From: a bacterium
GTDB taxonomy: Bacteria > SAR324 > NAC60-12
Assembly (NCBI GenBank): GCA_965233585.1
Contig: CBDDTI010000295.1
Span: 1-64,000 of the forward strand
Reading direction: 5' to 3'
Length of the DNA: 64,000 bases
This document shows, piece by piece, positions 22,004 through 34,915 of this stretch. The translations under genes were made by a program, and so were the position numbers. Each line of letters starts with the position of its first letter. The stretch's first letter is position 1. The notes beneath the pieces are model-generated. The model searched no databases. It was given only the letters and a program-made list of their open reading frames with translations, and had not been told where the DNA came from.

Positions 22004-25000
22004 TTGAGATTATCCAGAAAACATGGGTTAAGTTTGACCAAATCGCTCACTCTGTTCAGTGCAACATTGTTGGTTGTTGTGGGTTGTGGTTCTCCTTTTG
22101 TTTCCGAAAAAACAAGTGAGGATACACAGAATCCACCACCCAAACCAATGGCTCAAGAAACTCAAGATTCTATCCCTTCAGTCAATTTGCAAACAGGGTA
22201 TTTTGATAATGTTTCAGGAGTAGCTTACCAAACTTCATCAGGTCAAACAGGAATTGTAGGCAAAGACTTTTCTTATCAATACATACCAGATGATACTGTG
22301 ACATTTTTCATTCAAAAAAAGAATGAAACCATCATACTTGGAGAAGTGGAAGCGGGAGATGTGACTGTCTATGATTTTGTAGATGAAATTCCTGTCATTC
22401 AAGTCTTGTCTGCAGAGGATAGTGATTTTGATTCAGGTAATGGTTACCAAATCAAAAATCAGCCACCTGCTCAAGTCGCTCATCATCCATTGCATTGGTC
22501 AGACCAACAAAATCTGCTGGCATCAAACCAAAACGATCACTCCTTACCCATCTCGTTCAGCTCAAACTTCATTGCAAGCAATCCAACACCTATACAAGAA
22601 ATTGACCTGCAAGAATTGAATGATGAAGATTTACAGAAGCTCTCTCAACTCTATCCTGATGTCCTTGACCCTGATGCTGTTTATAAAAATATAGAAAATC
22701 TCTTTGCACAATACGCATCAGAAAAACCAAGTAAGACCTTGGAAAATTATATGAAGGGTGGAAGGTTCAAACTACTACTACCTTACAGCGCAAAAGTATC
22801 TAATTTAATGCGATATTTTCCCAAAGCCAAAGATAGCAATGGGAATGTCATCCGTGGGTATGACTACGAGCCACAAATTGGAGTAGGAACTATTGATACA
22901 GAAGCAAAGCTTTACCAAGCACGGGCAAAACTCTATGCTGTCATCAATAAGTTACAAAGTTATGAACGAAGTGTTTCCACAAAACGATTACAGACTACCA
23001 ATAGTATTGTTGAAACACGTGCTGATTACCTTGATCAAGCTGAAAAAGTTTTTGATTTTGCAGAACAGGTGGGGGACGTTATGGCTGCTGCTGCTGGCGG
23101 AGGAAAATCAGCAGCACTCAAGGCGGGAGGTAAATTTGCTTTGAAACAATCAGTGATTTTCGTTCAAGACCAAATCACTCAATATTTATTTGATCTAATA
23201 AAAGAAAAGTTAGAGAAAAAATCAGAAGAACTCCGTATGGAGTATGCTGAGAAAAATAATCTTACCCCAGAAGAAGTGGAAGAATTGATTAAGAAGCAAG
23301 AGCAACTAGTCACTGACCTCATCAAACTCTTAAGTCTGCCTCAACAAATAAAGGTAAGCATCATCACAAGAATTGATAACTATCAACTACCCATTCAAAT
23401 CAAAAATAAAAGTTTAAATCATGCTGTTCATGCTGTCATAAGAGAATCAGCAAAATGTGCAGTGGATGAAGTTTTTAATATGAGCCCAGATAATATGAAA
23501 GTTCATTATAAAGGATTTGTGAAAAAATCTGTAAATAAATATGTAGCCAAAGTACAAAACGGGAAAGTGTATTGGGGTACAGATAGACGTTTTAAATATA
23601 CCAAAGACTACAGATCCTTTTTAAAAAAAGGACTCAAGAACATAGTGAAACGTTGTATAGAAAAGAACAGGCTTAAGATGCTCAAATACGGTCTAAAAAA
23701 AGTAGGAGTAGAAGACCTTGATAAACACGGACATGCAAAAATGTTGGATGACATTATTTCAACTGCTACAAAAATATCAAGAGGATGTGTAAAAAACAAG
23801 GCGACTTGTGCAATAGAAGCCCAAGCTAGATTAGTTCTTTTGGGTGGTAGATTTGCAAATAATCTTGGTGCAACTGCAGCTTCAATTGCATTAACTGAGA
23901 TGGCAGAAAAGCAACAAGTTCTTAATTTAGGTTATTTAGAATACACCAGACTCCTCACCATTTTTGAATATGTGTTTGGAGAAGACCAAAGTGAAGCAAA
24001 AGTACATGAGTTTATTGAAAATTATTTGAGACTCAACGTTCCTAAAAAAACGGGAGCAACAACGAAATACTATGAGGATTTAGCTGATTTTGCAGAAGAT
24101 TACTGTCTTCCACATTTGCGTTTGACTCAAGTCTATGCTACTGACAAATGGGTTTCAAATAGCAAGGCTTGTAACGAAAAAAATCAGACTGATGAATACC
24201 GTCAGGATTCAACAGCCCTCATTTTGGGCAATATTTTTATGAACTATTATGCTGGTCATCCATACATAGACACAGTGGATGATTTTTTCGCCAAAAGATC
24301 TATTAGAGAAAGCATACCTCTTCCTGATGGCTTTTTTAGTTTGAGAAGACATGTTTACGACACAGGGAAAGTGGCTTTTTATCAACATATCACCTCACTC
24401 ATGCAAACAGGTTTTTTTAAATTTAAGCCAGAAAATGAGATTAAGTTAGAAAATGTTGTAGGAATTACAGGTCAACAAGATCAAGGCAATGTGAGTGTTC
24501 ATAATTTTATTAAATTTGATAATCTCAAATATCTTTACAATGATGAAGACGCATCTAGCACTCTTAGCCTCAAATTATCCTCCAAATCTTTAAAAGGAGG
24601 TTATTTTAAAATTAAGGAAATCAAAATTTTAAATCCACAAAATAAAACCTCTTTAGATTTAGCTTATCAAGGAAATTGCTTAAATTTTGTTCAAGTCAGA
24701 CCACTATCATCAATCACATGTGAGTTGGTGTCCTCCATAAACCGACCACTACCTCACCAGTTTTATGTCTCTGTTCAATACTTCAAACAGCTTAATCGCG
24801 AAAGTGCGGACGATTATCTGGTTACTATGGCAAAACTGGCTCCCCCCACACTTGATCTTCAACCTAAATCATACCAAGCAGAACAAGATGAACTGCTCAT
24901 CAAAGTCCATTTTAACAATCAAGGCTATGATCTTTCAGAAATTGAGTATGAATTTCAGATTGTGGGTTCCATGGAATCAAATTTCACTTCATCAACTTTT

Positions 25001-28000
25001 CAAAGTGATACTGATCAACTTGGTGAAGGAACAAAAGTTGTTTCATCTGACCCCTCTTACATCATTCAAAACCCATCAGGCAATTATGATGTGACAGTCA
25101 CTGCTTATGACAAGAAGACACGACAGCAGTTAGCCGCAGTGAGCCGATTGATAAGAGAACGTCAAGCTGCGATCCAACCAGATTTAGTCTGGACTGCCAA
25201 TCAACCTCTTATCTCTACAGCATTAGGAAAGAGTTTTAAAATTGCTCCTCAAGTGAAGCAGACCAAGAAAAATCATTCTGTTGATTTTTCCAAAATCCAA
25301 CACAACTGTTTCAAACTAGGGTTGGCTAAAAACAAATTTGCGTTCTATCAAGTCTTGTCTGATCCATCTTGTGCAGGAAAAGAGATTCCTATCTCTTTAA
25401 AGGTCTCTGTTGGTGATCAGACCAAAGAAGTGAAGTCTAATATCAAAATTGCCACACTTTCCAAAAAAGCCTTTGTCTATTTCCGCCCTGAAATGGATTT
25501 ACCTGCTGATGGAAGCTCTATTGTTCAAGGGCAGACTCTCACTAAGAAGTGGGGATTTAACAACAATGGGGGAATCACGATCAAAAATTTACGAGTCAAA
25601 TCAGTCAAAACTTCTGGAATAGAACAAGGAGCAGTCAGTTTTTCAAAGACCAACTGGAATCCGGGCGAGCTGAACGAATTTTCACTCACATTGAAAAATA
25701 CAAAATCTAATCAAAAAGAGTTTTATGGTCGTTTTGAGCTAGAGCATGACTCAGATGGCGATGGTCAATATGAACCTCTCCCTTTCAGGGATGGTCGTCA
25801 AGCATACATGACATATCAGTTCAATGCTGCTCAGAATGGGATTTATTCTGTCAAAGTTTTTAAAAGATACGGTCAAACAGTGATCTCTTTAAGGACCAAA
25901 TACCCTGTTTCACATAACCAAATGAGTTTGATTATCAGTGGTTATGATCAAACTCAATCTTTAAGACGATTAAAAAGTAAAACTCGTTTTGAATTCAGCA
26001 AAAAACTAGCTGATGGAAAATATGCAGGTCTTTTCAATTTGCTTGATCAAAATAAGCAAGTTGTGGGGTCTAAGTCATTTTCTTTCGCAGTAGGGCAACC
26101 TCAAACTCCTGTGAATCCACCGCCTAGCCAAAAACCTTCTATCTCTTCCATGACTCCCCAGCAGGCTACTCAATCCATTGGAAAGAAATTTATAGTCAAA
26201 GGAAAGGGTTTGCATCAAGGTTTAAAAATGTATCTTGACCGAGAAGCAAATTGTTTGTCTCCCCAGATGAATTCTGATCAGACACAAGCCACTGTTTTTT
26301 GCACTCCTCACAAATCAGGCAATGTGAACTTTTATATTCAAGACAGCAAAGGTCAAAACATCTCTGCCTCTCCATATTCTGTCAGAGTCTCTGCATACTC
26401 TGCTAAAAAACCAACACTTTTACAAATTGCACCAACTCACAAAGTCGCTGATAACATAGGCTTCACATTGTCCTTGCATGGGGCAGATTTTAATACTCAA
26501 AGTCGCATAGAACTTGGTTTGATAGGAGGAAACACGGGGAGAGTGAAACCCATTTACGTTTCTAGCACCAAGCTAGAAATCAAAAAATTCCCAGCATTGA
26601 AAAAACTAGCAGGCAAAACACTCATGTTGAGAGTCAAAAATGGAAGAAAAATTTCTGATTGGAAATACTTGACTTTCGCTCAACAGGCATCACCCAAACC
26701 CAATCCTCCCTCTCAACCTAAACCAACACCATCCAATCCTCCAAATCAGCCTAAACAAGATATTGTAACCATTACATCTAATCCTAATCGCAATATCTTA
26801 TCTTCTCCTAACGGGGGTGAAGTTTGGATTTATGGCAAAACAGAAACGGTTCGTTGGAATCAGAATGCACTAGGAGGAAGCTATCTGGATATTTATGTTT
26901 TGCATGATGACCCAACAGTGCTCAGCAACAGCCAAGTTGCAGACCTGTCTGTGATCAATTCTAAACGATGGTATCGTTTTGCAACCAAAATTAGGAATAC
27001 AGGAAGTTATACAGTAGATCCAGCAAAACTAAACTCACGTGGAGATGCATACCTGATTTTAATTGTTTCAAGCAGTGACAAGACAAAATTTGATTTAAGC
27101 GATAAGACCTTCGGCATCTTCCCAAAACTTCCAAGCCTACCCCCTTCAGGTGGAGGAGATAGCACAACTTCTAAACCTGTCTTCAATAGTGGCGTGGCAC
27201 TTTCTCAAGGTAACGGGTACATCAACACTGCTTGGAATGCAGCATACAATGCCACCAGATATGAACTCTATCGCTCCACTAACAGCTCTTATTGGGGAAG
27301 TAGAATTTACAGTGGCACTGGTACTAGTTACAGAGACACCAATGTCTCTGATGGCACCACTTACTACTATCGTGCCAAAGCATGTAATAATGCAGGTTGT
27401 ACCGATGGCAGGCAAAATTTCTTCACATATCGCAAGCCTTCTTCAGGAAGTGGAGGAGGCAGTAACCCTTCTAAACCTTCATTCAATAGTGGCGTGGCAC
27501 TTTCTCAAGGTAGCGGGTACATCAACACTGCTTGGAATGCTGCATCCAATTTCACCAGATATGAACTCTACCGCTCTACTAACAGCTCTTATTGGGGAAG
27601 CAGAATTTACAGTGGCTCTAACAACAGTTACAGAGACACCAATGTCTCTGATGGAACAACTTATTACTATCGTGCCAAAGCATGTAATAGTGCAGGTTGT
27701 ACTGATGGCAGGCAAAATTACTTCACATATCGCAAGCCTTCTTCAGGAAGTGGAGGAGGTAGTACTCCGACACCTTCCGCACCAACTTTGTCTTCTCTGA
27801 CACCTGACACTCAGAAAGCCAAAGGTCACTATTTTGACGTCTATTTTTATGGTTCAAACTTCACTTCTAGCAGTCAAGTAGAAATAGACAATGGGCGTAC
27901 ACCTTCCACGACTTATGTCTCCAGTTCAGAATTAAAAATTAGCATTCAGGCTAGTCAAAACTTGGCAGGTCAAACCCTGAAATTTAGAATCAAAAATGGC

Positions 28001-28603
28001 TCTCAAACTTCTGGTTGGAAGACCATCAGCTTTTTAACACCAACCAGTCCAACTCCTGAAGTCACTTCTATTTCTCCAACGACAGTCACTGAAGGAACAA
28101 GCACCACTTTCACTGTAACAGGACAACACTTACCCAGCACTCTTGCTATGTCCCTACAAGGTTCAGCAAGCTGTGGCAGTGAGTCTGTCAATTCTGCAGG
28201 AACACAAGCCACCATCACCTGTATTCCTAAGAGAACTGGCGATGTTGCTTTCTATGTCGCACCTCAAGATGGAGGAAAGGCTGTTCAAGGTTCTCCTTTT
28301 ACCATCACAGTCAAATCTTCTAAACTCTCATTATCCAGACTTTCGCATACAAGAGTGTCTGCAGACGGCTCATCTTTCAATCTCTACTTTTATGGCTCCA
28401 ATTTCACAAGGAATGCTGAAATAGAATATGGACGGACTACATCTTCTAGAAGATACACTTATAGCTCTCCCCGATACCTTTCAAGTTCAAGATTGGGAGT
28501 GGGTTTCACAGCAGCAAAGTCTTTAGCTGGCAAAACTCTTCAGTTTAGAGTGAAAGATGGTTCTCAAACTTCTGAGTGGAGATACCTGGGCTTTACAAAT
28601 TGA
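22004..28603 (+). CDS. Giant (2199 aa) multidomain surface lipoprotein / putative adhesin
   Basis: Lipobox LLVVVGC; NBR1-like Ig motif (DGSSIVQGQTLTKKWGFNNNG); several IPT/TIG-like units (P.ISSMTP, PTLSSLTP, PEVTSISP); SPNGGEVW domain; two FN3-like repeats; Pro/Gly-Ser linkers. Confidence 0.85.
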   Translation: MRLSRKHGLSLTKSLTLFSATLLVVVGCGSPFVSEKTSEDTQNPPPKPMAQETQDSIPSVNLQTGYFDNVSGVAYQTSSGQTGIVGKDFSYQYIPDDTVTFFIQKKNETIILGEVEAGDVTVYDFVDEIPVIQVLSAEDSDFDSGNGYQIKNQPPAQVAHHPLHWSDQQNLLASNQNDHSLPISFSSNFIASNPTPIQEIDLQELNDEDLQKLSQLYPDVLDPDAVYKNIENLFAQYASEKPSKTLENYMKGGRFKLLLPYSAKVSNLMRYFPKAKDSNGNVIRGYDYEPQIGVGTIDTEAKLYQARAKLYAVINKLQSYERSVSTKRLQTTNSIVETRADYLDQAEKVFDFAEQVGDVMAAAAGGGKSAALKAGGKFALKQSVIFVQDQITQYLFDLIKEKLEKKSEELRMEYAEKNNLTPEEVEELIKKQEQLVTDLIKLLSLPQQIKVSIITRIDNYQLPIQIKNKSLNHAVHAVIRESAKCAVDEVFNMSPDNMKVHYKGFVKKSVNKYVAKVQNGKVYWGTDRRFKYTKDYRSFLKKGLKNIVKRCIEKNRLKMLKYGLKKVGVEDLDKHGHAKMLDDIISTATKISRGCVKNKATCAIEAQARLVLLGGRFANNLGATAASIALTEMAEKQQVLNLGYLEYTRLLTIFEYVFGEDQSEAKVHEFIENYLRLNVPKKTGATTKYYEDLADFAEDYCLPHLRLTQVYATDKWVSNSKACNEKNQTDEYRQDSTALILGNIFMNYYAGHPYIDTVDDFFAKRSIRESIPLPDGFFSLRRHVYDTGKVAFYQHITSLMQTGFFKFKPENEIKLENVVGITGQQDQGNVSVHNFIKFDNLKYLYNDEDASSTLSLKLSSKSLKGGYFKIKEIKILNPQNKTSLDLAYQGNCLNFVQVRPLSSITCELVSSINRPLPHQFYVSVQYFKQLNRESADDYLVTMAKLAPPTLDLQPKSYQAEQDELLIKVHFNNQGYDLSEIEYEFQIVGSMESNFTSSTFQSDTDQLGEGTKVVSSDPSYIIQNPSGNYDVTVTAYDKKTRQQLAAVSRLIRERQAAIQPDLVWTANQPLISTALGKSFKIAPQVKQTKKNHSVDFSKIQHNCFKLGLAKNKFAFYQVLSDPSCAGKEIPISLKVSVGDQTKEVKSNIKIATLSKKAFVYFRPEMDLPADGSSIVQGQTLTKKWGFNNNGGITIKNLRVKSVKTSGIEQGAVSFSKTNWNPGELNEFSLTLKNTKSNQKEFYGRFELEHDSDGDGQYEPLPFRDGRQAYMTYQFNAAQNGIYSVKVFKRYGQTVISLRTKYPVSHNQMSLIISGYDQTQSLRRLKSKTRFEFSKKLADGKYAGLFNLLDQNKQVVGSKSFSFAVGQPQTPVNPPPSQKPSISSMTPQQATQSIGKKFIVKGKGLHQGLKMYLDREANCLSPQMNSDQTQATVFCTPHKSGNVNFYIQDSKGQNISASPYSVRVSAYSAKKPTLLQIAPTHKVADNIGFTLSLHGADFNTQSRIELGLIGGNTGRVKPIYVSSTKLEIKKFPALKKLAGKTLMLRVKNGRKISDWKYLTFAQQASPKPNPPSQPKPTPSNPPNQPKQDIVTITSNPNRNILSSPNGGEVWIYGKTETVRWNQNALGGSYLDIYVLHDDPTVLSNSQVADLSVINSKRWYRFATKIRNTGSYTVDPAKLNSRGDAYLILIVSSSDKTKFDLSDKTFGIFPKLPSLPPSGGGDSTTSKPVFNSGVALSQGNGYINTAWNAAYNATRYELYRSTNSSYWGSRIYSGTGTSYRDTNVSDGTTYYYRAKACNNAGCTDGRQNFFTYRKPSSGSGGGSNPSKPSFNSGVALSQGSGYINTAWNAASNFTRYELYRSTNSSYWGSRIYSGSNNSYRDTNVSDGTTYYYRAKACNSAGCTDGRQNYFTYRKPSSGSGGGSTPTPSAPTLSSLTPDTQKAKGHYFDVYFYGSNFTSSSQVEIDNGRTPSTTYVSSSELKISIQASQNLAGQTLKFRIKNGSQTSGWKTISFLTPTSPTPEVTSISPTTVTEGTSTTFTVTGQHLPSTLAMSLQGSASCGSESVNSAGTQATITCIPKRTGDVAFYVAPQDGGKAVQGSPFTITVKSSKLSLSRLSHTRVSADGSSFNLYFYGSNFTRNAEIEYGRTTSSRRYTYSSPRYLSSSRLGVGFTAAKSLAGKTLQFRVKDGSQTSEWRYLGFTN
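27168..27759 (+). repeat. 300-bp tandem duplication encoding two FN3-like domains
   Basis: KP.FNSGVALSQG.GYINTAWNAA...YELYRS...DTNVSDGTTYYYRAKACN is repeated with near DNA identity. Confidence 0.93.
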
Positions 28604-28706
28604 GACTGAACTACTCAAGCATGTTTGAATCACGGAGGTTCAAAAAACTCCCTGTCAAACTGCTTGACTCCTCACTTTTTAACAAAAATCAACATTAGAA
28701 AAAATT

Positions 28707-31448
28707 ATGAAGATCAATCATTTTGCAAGATGGGTCAGTTTGATATTACTCATTAATGCTTGTGGAGACTCTGGTAACAACCAGAACTCCCAAGCACCAC
28801 AACCAGCAGTCGCAGTGTCTGAAAGTCAGGAACAAGTGCCTTGTCCGCAACAAGGCAACCTCACCATTAAGAATGAACGTTCGTCAGATGTCGTGGTCGG
28901 CTATTCTCCTTCTTTAGAGAATAAAGATGCCCAACTGGCTCTGGTGCCTCCTCACTCTCAATGCCAACTTGACCTCTCCAAAGGGCAAGGTGATTTCGTC
29001 AAATTATACTGGGCAGACTATCAAGACCTATACGCAGGAGAAGCAGCAACGCCATCTTCTGACAACCAACCAAAAAGCAAAGCATTCAAACGTTCTGAAA
29101 TCACTACTTGGGTCATCACTCCCACAAATCCCCAAACTCCTCAAGACTCTCCTGGGTCTGAATCAGGAGGGGGAGAAGACAATCCACCACAAAAACCTGA
29201 CAACCAACCGCCAAGTACACCACATACACTGAATATCAGAGATGTTGGAGCAGATTACGTCACCATTGACTGGGCAGACTCTATTGATCCTGATGGCACT
29301 ATTGCAGGCTATGAAGTCTCTTACAAAACAGGCAACGGGTTGTGGACGGGAGAACAAATCACCACTCAAAACACTTACACCTTCAGCAATTTACAATCCA
29401 ACACTAGCTACACCTTCCGAGTGCGTGCCAAAGATGATGAAGACGCTTGGAGTGCTTACATCAATAGTCCTGAAATCAAAACAAAGGCTTTAGGTAGCTC
29501 TTCAGGAGGAGGAGGCGGAGGCGCCAACCCACCACAACAACCTGCCAAACCCTCCAGTTTGTCTATTTCAAACAGAACCTTAACTTTTGCCACTCAATCA
29601 GGCAACAGCTATCAATGTAGCAAAGATGGAGGTACAAATGTCAGTGATTGCAGCAGTCCCTTTCCTTTTGGCAACAATGCCATTGCCTCAGGCAAGCTCT
29701 GCGTCCGTGCCAAAGCATCAGGCAATGCCCCTGCTTCTGACTGGGCTTGTTACCAGCAAGGCATCCAACCTTCATCCGCTTGGAAGGAAATCAAAGCTAG
29801 TGATGATATTTTTTGGAAACACACCAGCGTTGTGTTTGGTGGCAAAATGTGGATGCTGGGCGGAAATGGCAGAGATGTCTGGAGTTCTTCTGATGGCAGG
29901 ACTTGGACAAAAGAGACTGCTTCAGCAGTTTGGGGAAGAAGGCATGGCCACACCAGCATTGTGTTCAATAACAAAACGTGGGTACTAGGTGGACATGACG
30001 GAATAATTGATTACAAAAATGATGTCTGGAGTTCTTCTGATGGCAAGACTTGGACCAAAGAGACGGCTTCAGCAGGCTGGTCAGGAAGGTATGGACACAC
30101 CAGCATTGTGTTCAATAACAAAATGTGGGTGCTGGGAGGATATGAGGGAATGGCAGGTCGTATAAACGATGTCTGGAGTTCTTCTGATGGCAAGACTTGG
30201 ACCAAAGAGACGGCTTCAGCAGGCTGGTCAGGAAGGTATGGACACACCAGCATTGTGTTCAATAACAAAATGTGGGTGCTGGGAAGTGGCAACGATGTCT
30301 GGAGTTCTTCTGATGGCAAGACTTGGACCAAAGAGACGGCTTCAGCAGGCTGGTCAGGCTGGTCAGGAAGGTCTGGACACACCAGCATTGTGTTCAATAA
30401 CAAAATGTGGGTGCTGGGAGGATATGAGGGAATAATTGATTACAAAAATGATGTCTGGAGTTCTTCTGATGGCAAGACTTGGACCAAAGAGACGGCTTCA
30501 GCAGGCTGGTCAGTAAGGTCTGAACACACCAGCATTGTGTTCAATAACAAAATGTGGGTGCTGGGAGGGAGTTACAAAAACGATGTGTGGAGTGCTTCTG
30601 ATGGCAAAGCTTGGACAAAAGTCACAGATGTAGGGTCTTCAGCAGGCTGGTCAGTAAGGTCTGAACACACCAGCGTTGCGTTCAATAACAAAATGTGGGT
30701 GCTGGGGGGAGGTGACAAGGGTGTGTGGAGTTCTTCTGATGGCAAGTCTTGGACAAAAGTCACAAGTGTAGCAGGCTGGCGAGGCTGGCGAGGCTGGGGA
30801 GTAAAGGGTGGACACACCAGCATTGTTTTCAATAACAAAATGTGGGTGCTGGGAGGGAGTTACAAAAACGATGTCTGGAGTTCTTCTGACGGCAGGAATT
30901 GGACCAAAGAGACTGCTTCAGCAGGCTGGTCAGGAAGGGATAGCCACACCAGCGTTGCGTTCAATAACAAAATGTGGGTGCTGGGAGGAAAGGGCACAAT
31001 GGGTAGCAAAAACGATGTCTGGAGTTCTTCTGATGGCAAGACTTGGACCAAAGAGACTGCTTCAGCAGGCTGGTCAGGAAGGAATAACCACACCAGCATT
31101 GTGTTCAATAACAAAATGTGGGTGCTGGGAGGAGGTGGCGAAAACGATGTCTGGAGTTCTTCTGATGGCAAGACTTGGACTAAAGAGACTGCTTCAGCAG
31201 GCTGGTCAGGAAGGAATAACCACACCAGCATTGTGTTCAATAACAAAATGTGGGTACTGGGAGGGGGTTACAAAAACGATGTCTGGAGTTCTTCTGATGG
31301 CAAGACTTGGACTAAAGAGACTGCTTCAGCAGGCTGGTCAGGAAGGGATAGCCACACCAGCATTGTGTTCAATAACAAAATGTGGGTGCTGGGAGGATAT
31401 GGTCCCAAATCTGGTAGCAAAAACGATGTCTGGGCTTTTGAACCTTGA
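28707..31448 (+). CDS. Surface lipoprotein: FN3 + 12 Kelch-like/Asp-box repeats (beta-propeller)
   Basis: Lipobox LINAC; FN3 (YTFRVRAKD); repeats HTSIVFNNKMWVLGG-x-NDVWSSSDGKTWTKETASAGWSGR. Confidence 0.9.
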   Translation: MKINHFARWVSLILLINACGDSGNNQNSQAPQPAVAVSESQEQVPCPQQGNLTIKNERSSDVVVGYSPSLENKDAQLALVPPHSQCQLDLSKGQGDFVKLYWADYQDLYAGEAATPSSDNQPKSKAFKRSEITTWVITPTNPQTPQDSPGSESGGGEDNPPQKPDNQPPSTPHTLNIRDVGADYVTIDWADSIDPDGTIAGYEVSYKTGNGLWTGEQITTQNTYTFSNLQSNTSYTFRVRAKDDEDAWSAYINSPEIKTKALGSSSGGGGGGANPPQQPAKPSSLSISNRTLTFATQSGNSYQCSKDGGTNVSDCSSPFPFGNNAIASGKLCVRAKASGNAPASDWACYQQGIQPSSAWKEIKASDDIFWKHTSVVFGGKMWMLGGNGRDVWSSSDGRTWTKETASAVWGRRHGHTSIVFNNKTWVLGGHDGIIDYKNDVWSSSDGKTWTKETASAGWSGRYGHTSIVFNNKMWVLGGYEGMAGRINDVWSSSDGKTWTKETASAGWSGRYGHTSIVFNNKMWVLGSGNDVWSSSDGKTWTKETASAGWSGWSGRSGHTSIVFNNKMWVLGGYEGIIDYKNDVWSSSDGKTWTKETASAGWSVRSEHTSIVFNNKMWVLGGSYKNDVWSASDGKAWTKVTDVGSSAGWSVRSEHTSVAFNNKMWVLGGGDKGVWSSSDGKSWTKVTSVAGWRGWRGWGVKGGHTSIVFNNKMWVLGGSYKNDVWSSSDGRNWTKETASAGWSGRDSHTSVAFNNKMWVLGGKGTMGSKNDVWSSSDGKTWTKETASAGWSGRNNHTSIVFNNKMWVLGGGGENDVWSSSDGKTWTKETASAGWSGRNNHTSIVFNNKMWVLGGGYKNDVWSSSDGKTWTKETASAGWSGRDSHTSIVFNNKMWVLGGYGPKSGSKNDVWAFEP
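29820..31435 (+). repeat. Twelve ~130-145-bp coding tandem repeats
   Basis: Near-identical DNA scaffold with two variable segments per unit. Confidence 0.95.
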
Positions 31449-31549
31449 AAATCCTCATACTGTCATTGTGAACACATATCTACAATCTCAAAGAGCAAGA
31501 ATCCCCCATCTACTTCAAAGGGACGGGTTTCTTCATTCCCCCTTTGATA

Positions 31550-31608
31550 GGCAGTGTTCACTTGGTATTGTCATGATATTTTTCAAATCTTTTATAGTCA
31601 AAGAAGAG
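31550..31608 (-). mobile_element. Isolated right-end remnant of the same IS1 element
   Basis: GGCAGTGTTCACTTGGTATTGTCATGATATTTTTCAAATCTTTTATAGTCAAAGAAGAG matches the reverse complement of 2838-2896 with few mismatches. Confidence 0.88.
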
Positions 31609-31661
31609 TCAGTCATTTTGCTTGACTCTTCATTTTTTAACAAAAATCAACACTAGGAAAC

Positions 31662-34199
31662 ATGATGAAAATCAATCATTTTGCAAGATGGGTCAGTTTG
31701 ATATTACTCATTCATGCCTGTGCAGACTCTGGTAACAATCAGAACTCCCAAGAGCAACCAGCAGTCGCAGTGTCAGCAAGTCAGGAACAAAGTGTGCCTT
31801 GTCCGCAACAAGGCAACCTCACCATTAAGAATGAACGTTCGTCAGATGTCGTGGTCGGCTATTCTCCTTCTTTAGAGAACAAAAAAGCTCAACTGGCTCT
31901 GGTGCCTCCTCACTCTCAATGCCAACTTGACCTCTCCAAAGGGCAAGGTGATTTCGTCAAATTATACTGGGCAGACTATCAAGACCTATACGCAGGAGAA
32001 GCAGCAGAACCATCTTCTGACAACCAACCAAAAAGCAAAGCATTCAAACGTTCTGAAATCACCACTTGGGTCATTACTCCCACAAATCCCCAAACTCCTC
32101 AAGACTCTCCTGAGTCTGAATCAGGAGGGGGAAAAGACAAACCACCACAAAAGCCAGACAACCCTGACAATCAACCGCCAAGCACACCGCATATACTGAA
32201 CATCAGAGATGTTGGTACAGATTACGTCACCATTGACTGGGCAGACTCTATTGATCCTGATGGCGCAATCACAGGTTACGAAGTCTCTTACAAAGCAGGC
32301 AATAATGGATTTTGGACAGGGACAAGCACGACAGACAGCACAACTTACACCTTTAACAACTTACAACCTAACACCGCTTACACCTTCCGAGTCCGTGCCA
32401 AAGATGATGACGATGCTTGGGGTGATTACATCAACAGTCCTGAAATCAAAACAAAGGCTTTAGGTAGCTCTTCAGGAGGAGGCGGCGGAGGCGCCAACCC
32501 ACCACAACAACCTGCCAAACCCTCCAGTTTGTCTATTTCAAACAGAACCTTAACTTTTGCCACTCAATCAGGCAACAGCTATCAATGTAGCAAAGATGGA
32601 GGTACAAATGTCAGTGATTGCAGCAGTCCCTTTCCTTTTGGCAACAATGCCATTGCATCAGGCAAACTCTGTGTGCGAGTGAAGGCATCAGGCAATGCTC
32701 CTGCATCAGACTGGAGTTGTTACAATCAAGCCATTGCTGCAGCTAACCAAGCACCAAGCAAGCCCAGCACGATTCAAACCAGCAATGTTGGAGCAGACAG
32801 CATCACGGTGTCATGGACTGCTGCCACAGATTCAGATGGGAGCATTGCAGGCTATCAAGTCTCTTACAAAGAAGGGAGCAACGGCTGGACAGGAGAACAA
32901 ACCACCACCCAAACCACTTACACTTTCAGCAGTTTGCAATCTAACACCAGCTACACTTTCCGAGTGCGTGCCAAGGATGATGACGATGCTTGGAGTGGAT
33001 ACAAAGAAAGTAACCGTTTTGGTTTTAATCTCAAATTTAAAGCGATTTCTAAATCTGGATTGGCAAAATCAGAACCTTCTTTTGCAATAAACGAAGAAGG
33101 GTATTTATTTTCTTGGGGCAATAATAATAAAGGTCAGTTAGGGTTAGGTGATACAGATAAGAGAACTAGACCGACACGTGTGGGTAACAAAACATATCAA
33201 ACTGTTTCTTCTGGAAGCTTTATGGCTTTGGCAATAGATACGAAAGGGCATTTGTTTTCTTGGGGAGAAAATATAGCAGGATCGTTAGGATTAGGTGGCG
33301 AAAGCATTACTTACAAAACAAACAGATTCGGTGAGCAATATGTAACTCAACCTTATCAAATAGGAAGTAGAAAATATCGTCTAATAGAAGCAGCTGGAAT
33401 AAGTTCCTTTGCAATTTCAACAAGTGGTGGATTTTATTCTTGGGGCTATAATGGCACTCTGGGACACCTTGCACTGAGTGATAATAGTAGTGATAATCAT
33501 TATGGAACTCAAACAGGATGTCTATTGAATGGGATTAATTCTAAATCAGACAGCAATCATAAATACTATTTAGATCAACCTCACCTAAGAAACCCTAGTA
33601 AAACAGGAAATCTCACTGCTATATCTGCAAGCATAACAGGTTCTCACGTATTAGCTATAAGCAGCAATGGCACTATTTCTTGGGGATTTGGCTGGTTTGG
33701 CTTACTTGAAGATTCTACTACATCAGTACTGTCTAGCGATCAAGAGGGACGTCCTTGTGTTGGTTATCACATCAGCGTCGGTAATACAAAGTATCAAAAT
33801 GTTGCAGCAGCTAAATGGGTATCTTTTGGAATTGATAGTCAGGGTCATCTTTATAGTTGGGGAAGACCTGGTGCCAGACTTGGTAGGTCTGTTCCCAGTT
33901 CTCAGATAATTATGTTGCCATTTAACAAAAATAGTAAGTTAGCCTCTACAAAAAGAGGTCGGATAGGAAATAGAAAATACAAAACGATAACAGCGTACTA
34001 CGAAAGTGCTTTTGCTTTAGATGAAAATGGTCATTTGTTTGCTTGGGGAGGCTTTAATGGCAAAAGTACACCAACACAACTGGGTAATGAAAAATACAAA
34101 AAAATTAGCAACGGATTAGGCATTGATGAAAACGGCTTCCTTTGGCAATGGAACAAGGAATATCCTACTCCTAAACCAGTGAGACTTGTGCAATATTGA
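31662..34199 (+). CDS. Surface lipoprotein paralog: 2x FN3 + RCC1-like repeat domain
   Basis: First ~350 aa nearly identical to the 28707 protein; lipobox LIHAC; RCC1 motifs FAINEEGYLFSWGNNNKGQLGLG and AIDTKGHLFSWGEN. Confidence 0.88.
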   Translation: MMKINHFARWVSLILLIHACADSGNNQNSQEQPAVAVSASQEQSVPCPQQGNLTIKNERSSDVVVGYSPSLENKKAQLALVPPHSQCQLDLSKGQGDFVKLYWADYQDLYAGEAAEPSSDNQPKSKAFKRSEITTWVITPTNPQTPQDSPESESGGGKDKPPQKPDNPDNQPPSTPHILNIRDVGTDYVTIDWADSIDPDGAITGYEVSYKAGNNGFWTGTSTTDSTTYTFNNLQPNTAYTFRVRAKDDDDAWGDYINSPEIKTKALGSSSGGGGGGANPPQQPAKPSSLSISNRTLTFATQSGNSYQCSKDGGTNVSDCSSPFPFGNNAIASGKLCVRVKASGNAPASDWSCYNQAIAAANQAPSKPSTIQTSNVGADSITVSWTAATDSDGSIAGYQVSYKEGSNGWTGEQTTTQTTYTFSSLQSNTSYTFRVRAKDDDDAWSGYKESNRFGFNLKFKAISKSGLAKSEPSFAINEEGYLFSWGNNNKGQLGLGDTDKRTRPTRVGNKTYQTVSSGSFMALAIDTKGHLFSWGENIAGSLGLGGESITYKTNRFGEQYVTQPYQIGSRKYRLIEAAGISSFAISTSGGFYSWGYNGTLGHLALSDNSSDNHYGTQTGCLLNGINSKSDSNHKYYLDQPHLRNPSKTGNLTAISASITGSHVLAISSNGTISWGFGWFGLLEDSTTSVLSSDQEGRPCVGYHISVGNTKYQNVAAAKWVSFGIDSQGHLYSWGRPGARLGRSVPSSQIIMLPFNKNSKLASTKRGRIGNRKYKTITAYYESAFALDENGHLFAWGGFNGKSTPTQLGNEKYKKISNGLGIDENGFLWQWNKEYPTPKPVRLVQY

Positions 34200-34302
34200 T
34201 AAAACCTCACAGTCAATGGCATTTGCATCATTCAAAAAACTCCCATGCGTGTTCCCATTTTTAAGTAGAAAAATCTCTGACCCTGTGTTCATTCATTTGC
34301 AA

Positions 34303-34800
34303 TGGATTCCTCATCAAGCACAGAATGACAACTATTGTCATTCGGAGCGAAAGAACGTCACCCCCTGTGAAAACAGGGGCAGGAATCCAGTCACGTTAGG
34401 AATCTGTGCTTGGTTTGGTGATAGATTCCGCATCAAGTTCAGAATGACAAAGAACGTCTTCACCTTGAAAACCGTCATTGCGGGCTTGATACGCAATCTT
34501 CTTTGTCTTGCGTGTCTTGGTCATCTGTGGGCTTGCCCCGCAATCTCTTTTTTCCTAACTACCCCCGTCATTGCTCACCTTGACCCGCAATCTCTCTTTT
34601 TTCTTTGCTTTCCTCTTCCCAATAACTCCATTTTTTGAGATTCCGCATCAAGTGCGGAATGACTGAGAATATCTTCATTTTTCCTAACTACCCCCGTCAT
34701 TGCTCACCTTGACCCGCAATCTCATTCTTCTTAAAACACAGGACAAACACTCGGGTTTGTCTCTACGCTGTCATCTGTGGGCTTGACCCGCAATCTCTCT
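34303..34800. repeat. REP-like palindrome cluster (right border of the island)
   Basis: Multiple GTCATTGC(G/T)(G/C)..CTTGACCCGCAATCTC units, GAGATTCCGCATCAAGTGCGGAATGAC and a reverse GTAG-type REP at about 34739-34766. 34305-34448 is an inverted homolog of about 822-935. Confidence 0.88.
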
Positions 34801-34915
34801 TTTTTCCCAGACTACTCCGTCAGGCTTTGTTTTTTCGTTATGGCTCGCCTTCAACTCTGATAGAAGCGATCCCCAAAGATACGATGCTTTAAAAAGGGAG
34901 AACTTCCTAAAATGA

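Follow-up and report, generated by a model that had tools for sequence, protein, structure and literature searches.

Tandem genes with a shared mosaic stalk and two different propeller heads belong to a modular family of predicted lipoproteins in a SAR324 bacterium

Two adjacent bacterial genes, here called A and B, are best explained as tandem paralogues within a family of modular envelope lipoproteins that is specific to the lineage and shaped by recombination, and whose propeller heads probably act in binding, a reading to which we assign a probability of about 0.65. The genes lie in a 64,000-nucleotide (nt) stretch of DNA from a member of the SAR324 lineage, referred to below as the window, which comprises positions 1-64000 of contig C295 (CBDDTI010000295.1) of assembly G000 (GCA_965233585.1); coordinates given without a contig name are window positions. 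An earlier note on this DNA had described the pair as one constant stalk with two different heads, and had proposed a polymorphic receptor or adhesin system in which binding heads are exchanged by recombination. We read the genes as belonging to an ordinary surface-binding family rather than to a programmed head-swapping system.

Both genes are intact (Table 1), and their domain make-up is clear from comparison with Pfam. Gene A scores 53.2 bits for fn3 (cut-off 25), 139.5 for Kelch_1 (cut-off 20.1) and 160.5 for Kelch_KLHDC2 (cut-off 50). For gene B the scores are 107.7 bits for fn3 in two stretches (cut-off 25), 50.1 for RCC1 (21.7) and 61 for RCC1_2 (22), with WD40_RLD at 129.9 staying under its cut-off of 150. 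The head of A is a Kelch-repeat β-propeller and that of B an RCC1-like propeller. The 12 blades of A comprise 11 full units and one blade split across both ends of the array, and each carries the Asp-box-like motif S-x-D-G-x-x-W; they are near-identical save for two variable loops per blade, and their DNA is 81-90% alike. A tandem-repeat scan (TRF) of both genes returned the Kelch array, a 9-nt x 3.2 repeat within that array, and nothing else. Reading the sequence of B by eye gives seven repeats that follow the pattern A(I/L)xxxGxL(F/Y)SWG. The 12 Kelch/Asp-box repeats reported in the earlier note for one gene, and the additional FN3 and RCC1-like domain reported for the other, are thus borne out.

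The two genes share their 5′ parts. Residues 1-349 of A align with residues 2-354 of B at 319/354 identities (90%, BLASTP), and beyond ASDW(A/S)CY, the very point at which the note had placed the divergence, BLASTP finds no significant match between them. Homology at the DNA level begins ~45 nt 5′ of each ATG, in agreement with the shared upstream region noted before, and includes the 19-mer TTTTTAACAAAAATCAACA, of which the window holds two exact copies (at 28676 and 31634; shuffles expect 0). A scan for promoters and terminators gave no excess over chance, with 9 found against 9.5 expected.

The description of the shared part as about 350 nearly identical residues holds for its length and overall likeness but not for its texture, since near-identical and strongly diverged tracts alternate along it. 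Of 1108 aligned columns, 110 differ, and they do so in a structured pattern. The synonymous divergence (dS) is 0.077 in the base domain, 0.86 in the FN3 core, 0.06 from the end of the FN3 to the 5′ part of the four-cysteine module, and 1.33 in the last 18 codons of that module. The longest identical run, 173 nt (29514-29686), has a length that 0 of 20000 permutations reach; it ends inside the four-cysteine module at ..NNAIA|S, past which the divergence is at the family-wide level. The FN3 core of A (29309-29425) is only 60-73% identical to the first FN3 of B in 60-nt windows, whereas the surrounding stretch 29286-29460 is 83% identical to the second FN3 of B, and the first FN3 core of B is closest to an FN3 of another family member, C746_639182 (81.6%). 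The ratio of nonsynonymous to synonymous divergence (dN/dS) is 0-0.23 in every tract and 0.22 overall, the mark of purifying selection. Positive selection in the FN3 core was considered as well and, at a dN/dS of 0.22, is not supported.

The evidence for recombination takes the form of pairwise tract mapping, and the mosaic dS that it reveals agrees with a duplication combined with gene conversion at the edges of modules. A common 5′ part was duplicated, and where the four-cysteine module ends the copies were joined to heads that are unrelated to each other. Since then gene conversion has homogenised the two 5′ parts in patches, some of which derive from other modules or from paralogues. This process has acted across the whole family of 24 ORFs (open reading frames) described below.

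The heads themselves have separate histories. The nearest paralogue of the Kelch head of A, at C746:485812-488151, has about 71% nt identity, and no DNA-level match to the RCC1 head of B was found elsewhere in the genome; neither head, therefore, was recently copied from an extant gene. At the protein level the RCC1 head is 24-28% identical to the six other RCC1 ORFs of the genome over longer alignments and at most 36% over short ones. A wider search yielded 683 RCC1-type homologues, and among the 120 outside proteins listed identity reaches at most 34% where at least 50% of the query is covered. Composition tells a similar story. The GC content drops from 0.50 (32600-32999) to 0.36 (33000-33399), which matches the AT-rich shift previously placed after about position 33010. 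At third codon positions (GC3) the stalk stands at 0.395, the Kelch head at 0.49 and the RCC1 head at 0.24, compared with 0.37-0.39 in the housekeeping neighbours and 0.34-0.43 in the other RCC1 ORFs. Set against the 1st, 5th, 50th and 99th percentiles of the genome (0.205, 0.274, 0.374 and 0.469), the stalk is typical, the Kelch head lies above the 99th percentile, and the RCC1 head falls between the 1st and the 5th. These differences in GC3 between the stalk and the two heads indicate that A and B are chimeras of parts with different histories.

A pair of this kind could in principle arise in assembly, either from one gene with two strain-specific 3′ ends laid in tandem or from a collapsed repeat that was mis-joined. 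The assembly is indeed of the metagenome type, with 747 contigs and much non-bacterial DNA, and the shared part forms a 1.1-kb repeat that is too long for short reads to span. However, the structured differences between the two copies argue against such an artefact, as do unique contigs that cover 28000-28742, 29657-30029, 31611-31800 and 32627-34352, and the 256-kb contig C295 has 95% ORF cover. We consider an artefact extremely improbable.

Table 1. Features of genes A and B and of their surroundings, in window positions
Feature	Position	Strand	Description
Upstream neighbour	22004..28603	+	Predicted lipoprotein, 2199 aa, ..LLVVVGC.., IPT/TIG and choice-of-anchor-Z repeats
Upstream stretch common to A and B	28661..28706	+	89% over 45 nt to 31619-31663
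Gene A	28707..31448	+	Intact ORF, 913 aa; order: lipobox-like signal peptide, base domain, FN3, four-cysteine FN3-like module, Kelch/Asp-box head
Base domain of A	28836..29132	+	Residues 44-142, all-beta in low-confidence model
FN3 of A	29202..29492	+	Residues 166-262
Four-cysteine module of A	29529..29753	+	Residues 275-349, compact FN3/Ig-like sandwich
Kelch head of A	29754..31445	+	12 blades, Asp-box-like motif, variable loops
A-B spacer	31449..31661	.	~60-nt interspersed repeat at about 31549-31609
Gene B	31662..34199	+	Intact ORF, 845 aa; order: lipobox-like signal, base domain, FN3, four-cysteine module, second FN3, RCC1-like propeller
Second FN3 of B	32745..33032	+	Residues 362-457, absent from A
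RCC1-like head of B	33033..34196	+	Seven repeats
Short interspersed repeats 3′ of B	34302..34805	.	Overlap 150-aa ORF 34186-34638

Genes A and B are part of a larger set in the same genome. FN3 and four-cysteine modules are found in 24 ORFs on four large bacterial contigs, with 35 FN3 stretches in 17 ORFs and 29 four-cysteine stretches in 21 ORFs. In the 20 family ORFs scanned against Pfam of the 22 outside the window, the heads are Kelch, SBBP, Lcl_C, DUF5122 and LamG3, to which the RCC1 of B adds a sixth, so that the family has at least six head types; genome-wide, 25 ORFs contain this type of Kelch repeat and 7 contain RCC1. Nine family ORFs share a conserved three-domain base of ~300 amino acids (aa), and several N-terminal classes recur with different heads. 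Thus, C295_229597 (Kelch+LamG3) and C745_223705 (SBBP) share 390 aa at 96.9% identity and show no relation after that; this stretch also matches the second half of C745_61774 (Kelch), at 92.8% identity. Likewise, C746_639182 and C747_469437 share 548 aa at 88% identity before they diverge. In all these sets high identity stops either where the four-cysteine module ends on its C-terminal side or at the border of an FN3. Sharing can also be confined to one module: a 231-nt tract at 93.5% links a single FN3 module of C746_377622 with C746_502677 and C746_539726, which are otherwise different genes. As to whether only two copies exist with fixed heads, the outcome the earlier note had named as contrary to its proposal, the answer is divided. 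The base domain of A and B occurs within this assembly only in these two genes, and each head shows no differences among 3 samples, yet other sets of genes combine a shared N-terminus with different heads.

Three family ORFs are cut in the four-cysteine module at ..GDDAIA (C745:64540-64929, C747:471015-471404 and C745:228249-228348). From there they run stop-free via a spacer into a second lipoprotein start (MNMKFFIYSFLIVLVFGGC..), and the read-through ORFs are 1686 and 1170 aa long. Another member, C747_469437, starts just after a G7 tract, with the matching signal peptide (MQKLINRC..) upstream in another frame; by its sequence it looks like the "off" state of a poly-G frameshift.

Could the heads be exchanged by a dedicated mechanism? 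Programmed head-swapping or antigenic variation, in which frequent recombination at the four-cysteine or FN3 modules would alter specificity or evade recognition, draws on several of these findings: the gene sets with near-identical N-termini and different heads, whose tracts end at the same module edges; the abundance of interspersed repeats and of a 760-nt mobile element at family loci; and the break at a G7 tract in at least one other member, which hints that surface variation is important for the organism. Furthermore, the collapse of identity between A and B (..AIA|S) falls on the same codon at which the three cut ORFs break off (..GDDAIA|ELDPQ..) before the new lipoprotein start. This coincidence is a hint only, because the three cut ORFs share 100% identical DNA and so probably record one event that was later copied, which itself speaks against frequent exchange. 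A and B are direct repeats, so that crossing over between them deletes or duplicates and does not swap, and neither head has a donor of recent origin. No recombinase was found among the neighbours of A and B, and C295 carries no RVT_1 match (reverse transcriptase) out of the 97 in the assembly, template repeats not being part of that search; the single match on a large, densely coding contig, at C746:294.6 kb, is tens of kb from the nearest family gene. Silent promoterless head cassettes are absent, each head sitting in a full gene. No tract suited to phase variation is present at A or B from -150 to +330 (no A/T run ≥9 and no G/C run ≥7), and the same junctions recur in contigs from 3 samples. 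An active switching mechanism at A and B is not supported, and we judge programmed swapping to be quite improbable. What stands of the proposed exchange of heads by recombination is its modular basis (joints at stalk modules, a family of 24 ORFs and a mosaic dS), and what lacks support is an active exchange system.

A bolder form of the idea treats the whole family as a combinatorial receptor repertoire, in which at least 24 genes would combine several N-terminal and signal classes with at least six head types. Here the four-cysteine module would act as a joint common to all members, where non-allelic recombination brings heads into new combinations. Some members would in addition be turned on and off at poly-G tracts, and the whole would form a bacterial counterpart of variable receptor families, tracking host or prey surfaces for an uncultured associate of a marine invertebrate. 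We hold this to be speculative and rather unlikely.

The distribution of the family is consistent with its being lineage-specific. Among 40 kin genomes (24 of the same family and 16 of the same order; these are samples, some of them incomplete), there are 0 matches at E≤1e-5, and a metagenome scan with the shared N-terminus gave 59 pattern matches with 0 relatives among them. A word-indexed protein search with the N-terminal 349 aa returned 13 proteins, nine of which are from the organism itself while four match the FN3 only; the same type of search with the class-II base region returned 7 proteins, all from this organism. One database protein, P0008, is 95% identical to a G000 gene and lies on an 8120-nt contig, and may stem from another assembly. 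The precomputed domain lists of database proteins P0002, P0003, P0004 and P0007 contain PF28033.1, which is newer than the Pfam copy we scanned.

Data on variation at the locus consist of contigs from 4 runs, representing 3 samples of 1 study that is perhaps the source study, and they are weak on strain variation. Independent Logan contigs cross the head junctions with 0 differences at 29657-30029 (three runs) and 32627-34352 (two runs), and the other unique contigs extend from the upstream gene to the start of A (28000-28742) and from the spacer to the start of B (31611-31800, one run). Contig joints at repeats all have short sides of <35 nt and were not counted as variants. The deviating letters at 29049-29051 and 31880-31889 are those of the paralogue, that is, they reflect cross-mapping.

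We propose that the proteins are built as follows. A predicted signal peptide with a lipobox-like motif would lead to a lipid anchor: residues 1-20 resemble a lipoprotein signal, with LLINAC in A (Cys19) and LLIHAC in B (Cys20). The propeller, with 12 Kelch/Asp-box blades in A and seven RCC1 blades in B, would sit on a stalk that combines a small base domain of all-beta type with one or two FN3 domains and with a compact, disulfide-bonded FN3-like module. Exported in this way, the heads may be exposed at the surface and serve to bind different ligands, whether on a host surface, a particle or another cell, and the pair would offer two specificities on one stalk.

Of the stalk parts, the four-cysteine module is the best characterised. 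Four cysteines are conserved in residues 275-349 of A. Modelling used 24 of the 29 genomic copies, excluding three that are truncated, one duplicate and one that has no locus, and the AlphaFold2 (AF2) model has a predicted local distance difference test score (pLDDT) of 84.7. VIA-align places FN3/Ig-like sandwiches in 50/50 rows (Z 6.8-7.7), and the best Foldseek match is the chitobiase C-terminal domain (TMq 0.59). A profile of the module matches 651 representative proteins at E≤0.001, or 139 when the threshold is E≤1e-10, and many of them carry it in 7-20 tandem copies. Pfam was run on seven of the 150 proteins listed: four have weak CHB_HEX_C, Big_13, Y_Y_Y or Ig_J matches, and the remaining three are one with Peptidase_M23 only, one with Big_13 only and a family protein of this very genome. 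Taken together, the profile, Pfam and fold results indicate that the four-cysteine module is an ordinary bacterial stalk domain, here of a disulfide-bonded subtype. A search of PDB sequences with the N-terminal 349 aa gave FN3 matches only, and the base domain (residues 44-142) has no match in Pfam, NCBIfam or PDB sequences. In an unfiltered phmmer search the base domain has weak matches (E 0.005-0.2), nearly all of them to other family members.

Several points weigh against our explanation or limit it. Residue -2 of the predicted lipobox (N in A, H in B) appears atypical of the consensus [LVI][ASTVI][GAS]C, and a surface rather than a periplasmic orientation is something we infer. The AF2 model of the base domain is all-beta but poor, with a pLDDT of 56.9. 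The same domain may be distantly related to the first base domain found in other members, with weak scores (hhalign probability 77%, E 2e-5, 53 columns). The order of events could be an old duplication with later conversion or, equally readable from one genome, a recent duplication with later replacement of patches. No RNA run was found among the listed runs that hold the locus. Finally, the sequence names no candidate ligand and would allow a catalytic role for the heads; Asp-box propellers are also found in glycosidases, including sialidases.

Along this last line, the heads might be catalytic or serve nutrient acquisition, with Asp-box propellers acting on glycans or capturing substrates for uptake. 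In addition to the Asp-box-like motif in the blades of A, the resemblance of the four-cysteine module to the chitobiase C-terminal domain, the frequency of FN3 in glycoside hydrolases, and the occurrence of LamG3 and Lcl_C among the other family heads all point this way. Yet neither Pfam nor NCBIfam gives a catalytic family match to A or B, blades that are near-identical save for two loops fit a binding surface better than an active site, and bacterial RCC1 propellers are annotated only as RCC1-like. A catalytic or uptake function is hence doubtful, and we prefer the family of binding lipoproteins.

In the window, A and B are preceded by the gene at 22004-28603, and the three form consecutive surface-protein genes amid housekeeping genes, with MoeB and PrmC upstream and citrate synthase, TrpA, YggS and MltF downstream. 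The protein encoded at 22004-28603 contains two near-identical FN3-like units of ~100 aa that end in a Cys pair. The citrate synthase is 61% identical to its top locus among the best 80 kept, and its matches are spread across many phyla. The repeat in the A-B spacer (31549-31609) has 32 BLAST matches in the genome, its own copy counted. The multi-copy repeats 3′ of B overlap a 150-aa ORF (34186-34638) that we take to be spurious. For these repeats 31/107, 38/99 and 18/47 matches (29-38%) lie at most 1.5 kb from a family gene, while the flanks of family genes make up 2.5% of the five large contigs, an enrichment that is not normalised to intergenic space.

The 760-nt element has 33 copies that are ≥726 nt long and ≥98.7% identical, for example at C746:53092-53852 and C745:227489-228248 and, outside the window on the contig of A and B, at C295:233609-234368 and C295:74496-75259. 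At one insertion, an 8-nt overlap of the flanks resembles a target-site duplication. Judged by their coordinates, 8 of the 33 copies lie inside family genes or no more than ~1.6 kb from them, and one splits the gene C746:52362-58076. The assembly as a whole (747 contigs, 12 Mb) has about 4-5 Mb in contigs with dense ORF cover; in 532 contigs (5.2 Mb) less than 30% is covered by ORFs of at least 120 aa, and, of the 97 RVT_1 matches, 96 fall on contigs other than the four largest. The sparse ORF cover and this distribution of reverse transcriptases fit eukaryotic (host) DNA binned with the bacterium.

The mosaic of A and B clearly illustrates how gene conversion and the shuffling of modules work within a single genome. 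Should the heads bind host or prey surfaces, the family would provide a compact natural case of many specificities derived from few stalk parts, as well as candidate molecules for the attachment of an uncultured marine bacterium to its partner. The suggestion that the arrangement may be undescribed holds for the base domain of A and B but not for the principle, as conserved anchors with variable tips are already known in other bacteria and phages. Listings and the opening parts of abstracts on eukaryotic-like proteins in symbionts lent no support to an enrichment of Kelch and RCC1 proteins, so the statement in the earlier note that Kelch, RCC1 and FN3 proteins are enriched in symbionts of marine invertebrates was not confirmed there.

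Polymorphic toxins such as Rhs and CdiA consist of a conserved N-terminal part and alternative C-terminal modules, made by recombination. The family of A and B also joins a conserved N-terminal part to alternative C-terminal modules, but its heads are propellers of a binding type, and the alternatives are full genes rather than orphan C-terminal cassettes. The likeness to polymorphic toxins seen in the earlier note does not hold up further. Pfam and NCBIfam find no toxin domain in A or B, giving only families of the Kelch, RCC1 and FN3 types, and no immunity gene was seen downstream, A being followed by B, and B by repeats and then citrate synthase (the 34186-34638 ORF was not scanned for families). 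Together with the recombinase, reverse transcriptase and silent cassettes that were not found (see above), these absences set the pair apart from such toxins.

A parallel in design is offered by the mosaic adhesive trimer (MAT) fibre proteins of Bdellovibrio bacteriovorus, which are described as a surface repertoire on a common plan whose diverse chimeric tips are believed to extend the set of targets recognised (Caulton et al. 2024, PMC10769870). As described there, MAT proteins are trimeric phage-like fibres, some with an S74 domain, although non-S74 members exist (PMC10769870). On that description, the family of A and B is similarly a surface repertoire of constant plan and variable tip in one genome, and differs in consisting of predicted lipoproteins with an FN3-type stalk and propeller heads. 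Peptidase_S74 has no Pfam match in A or B at E≤0.01. The family does not belong to the polymorphic toxins, and probably not to the MAT proteins either.

A and B can also be compared with bacterial RCC1-like and Kelch-repeat surface proteins with FN3 or Big stalks, which have the same head folds, Ig-like stalk modules and export signals. Some of the homologues from the RCC1 search carry PF00041, PF18962 or PF02368, and belong to a widespread and mostly uncharacterised class. In contrast to that class, A and B have a base domain that protein searches find in this organism only, and they put two head folds on a near-identical stalk in adjacent genes.

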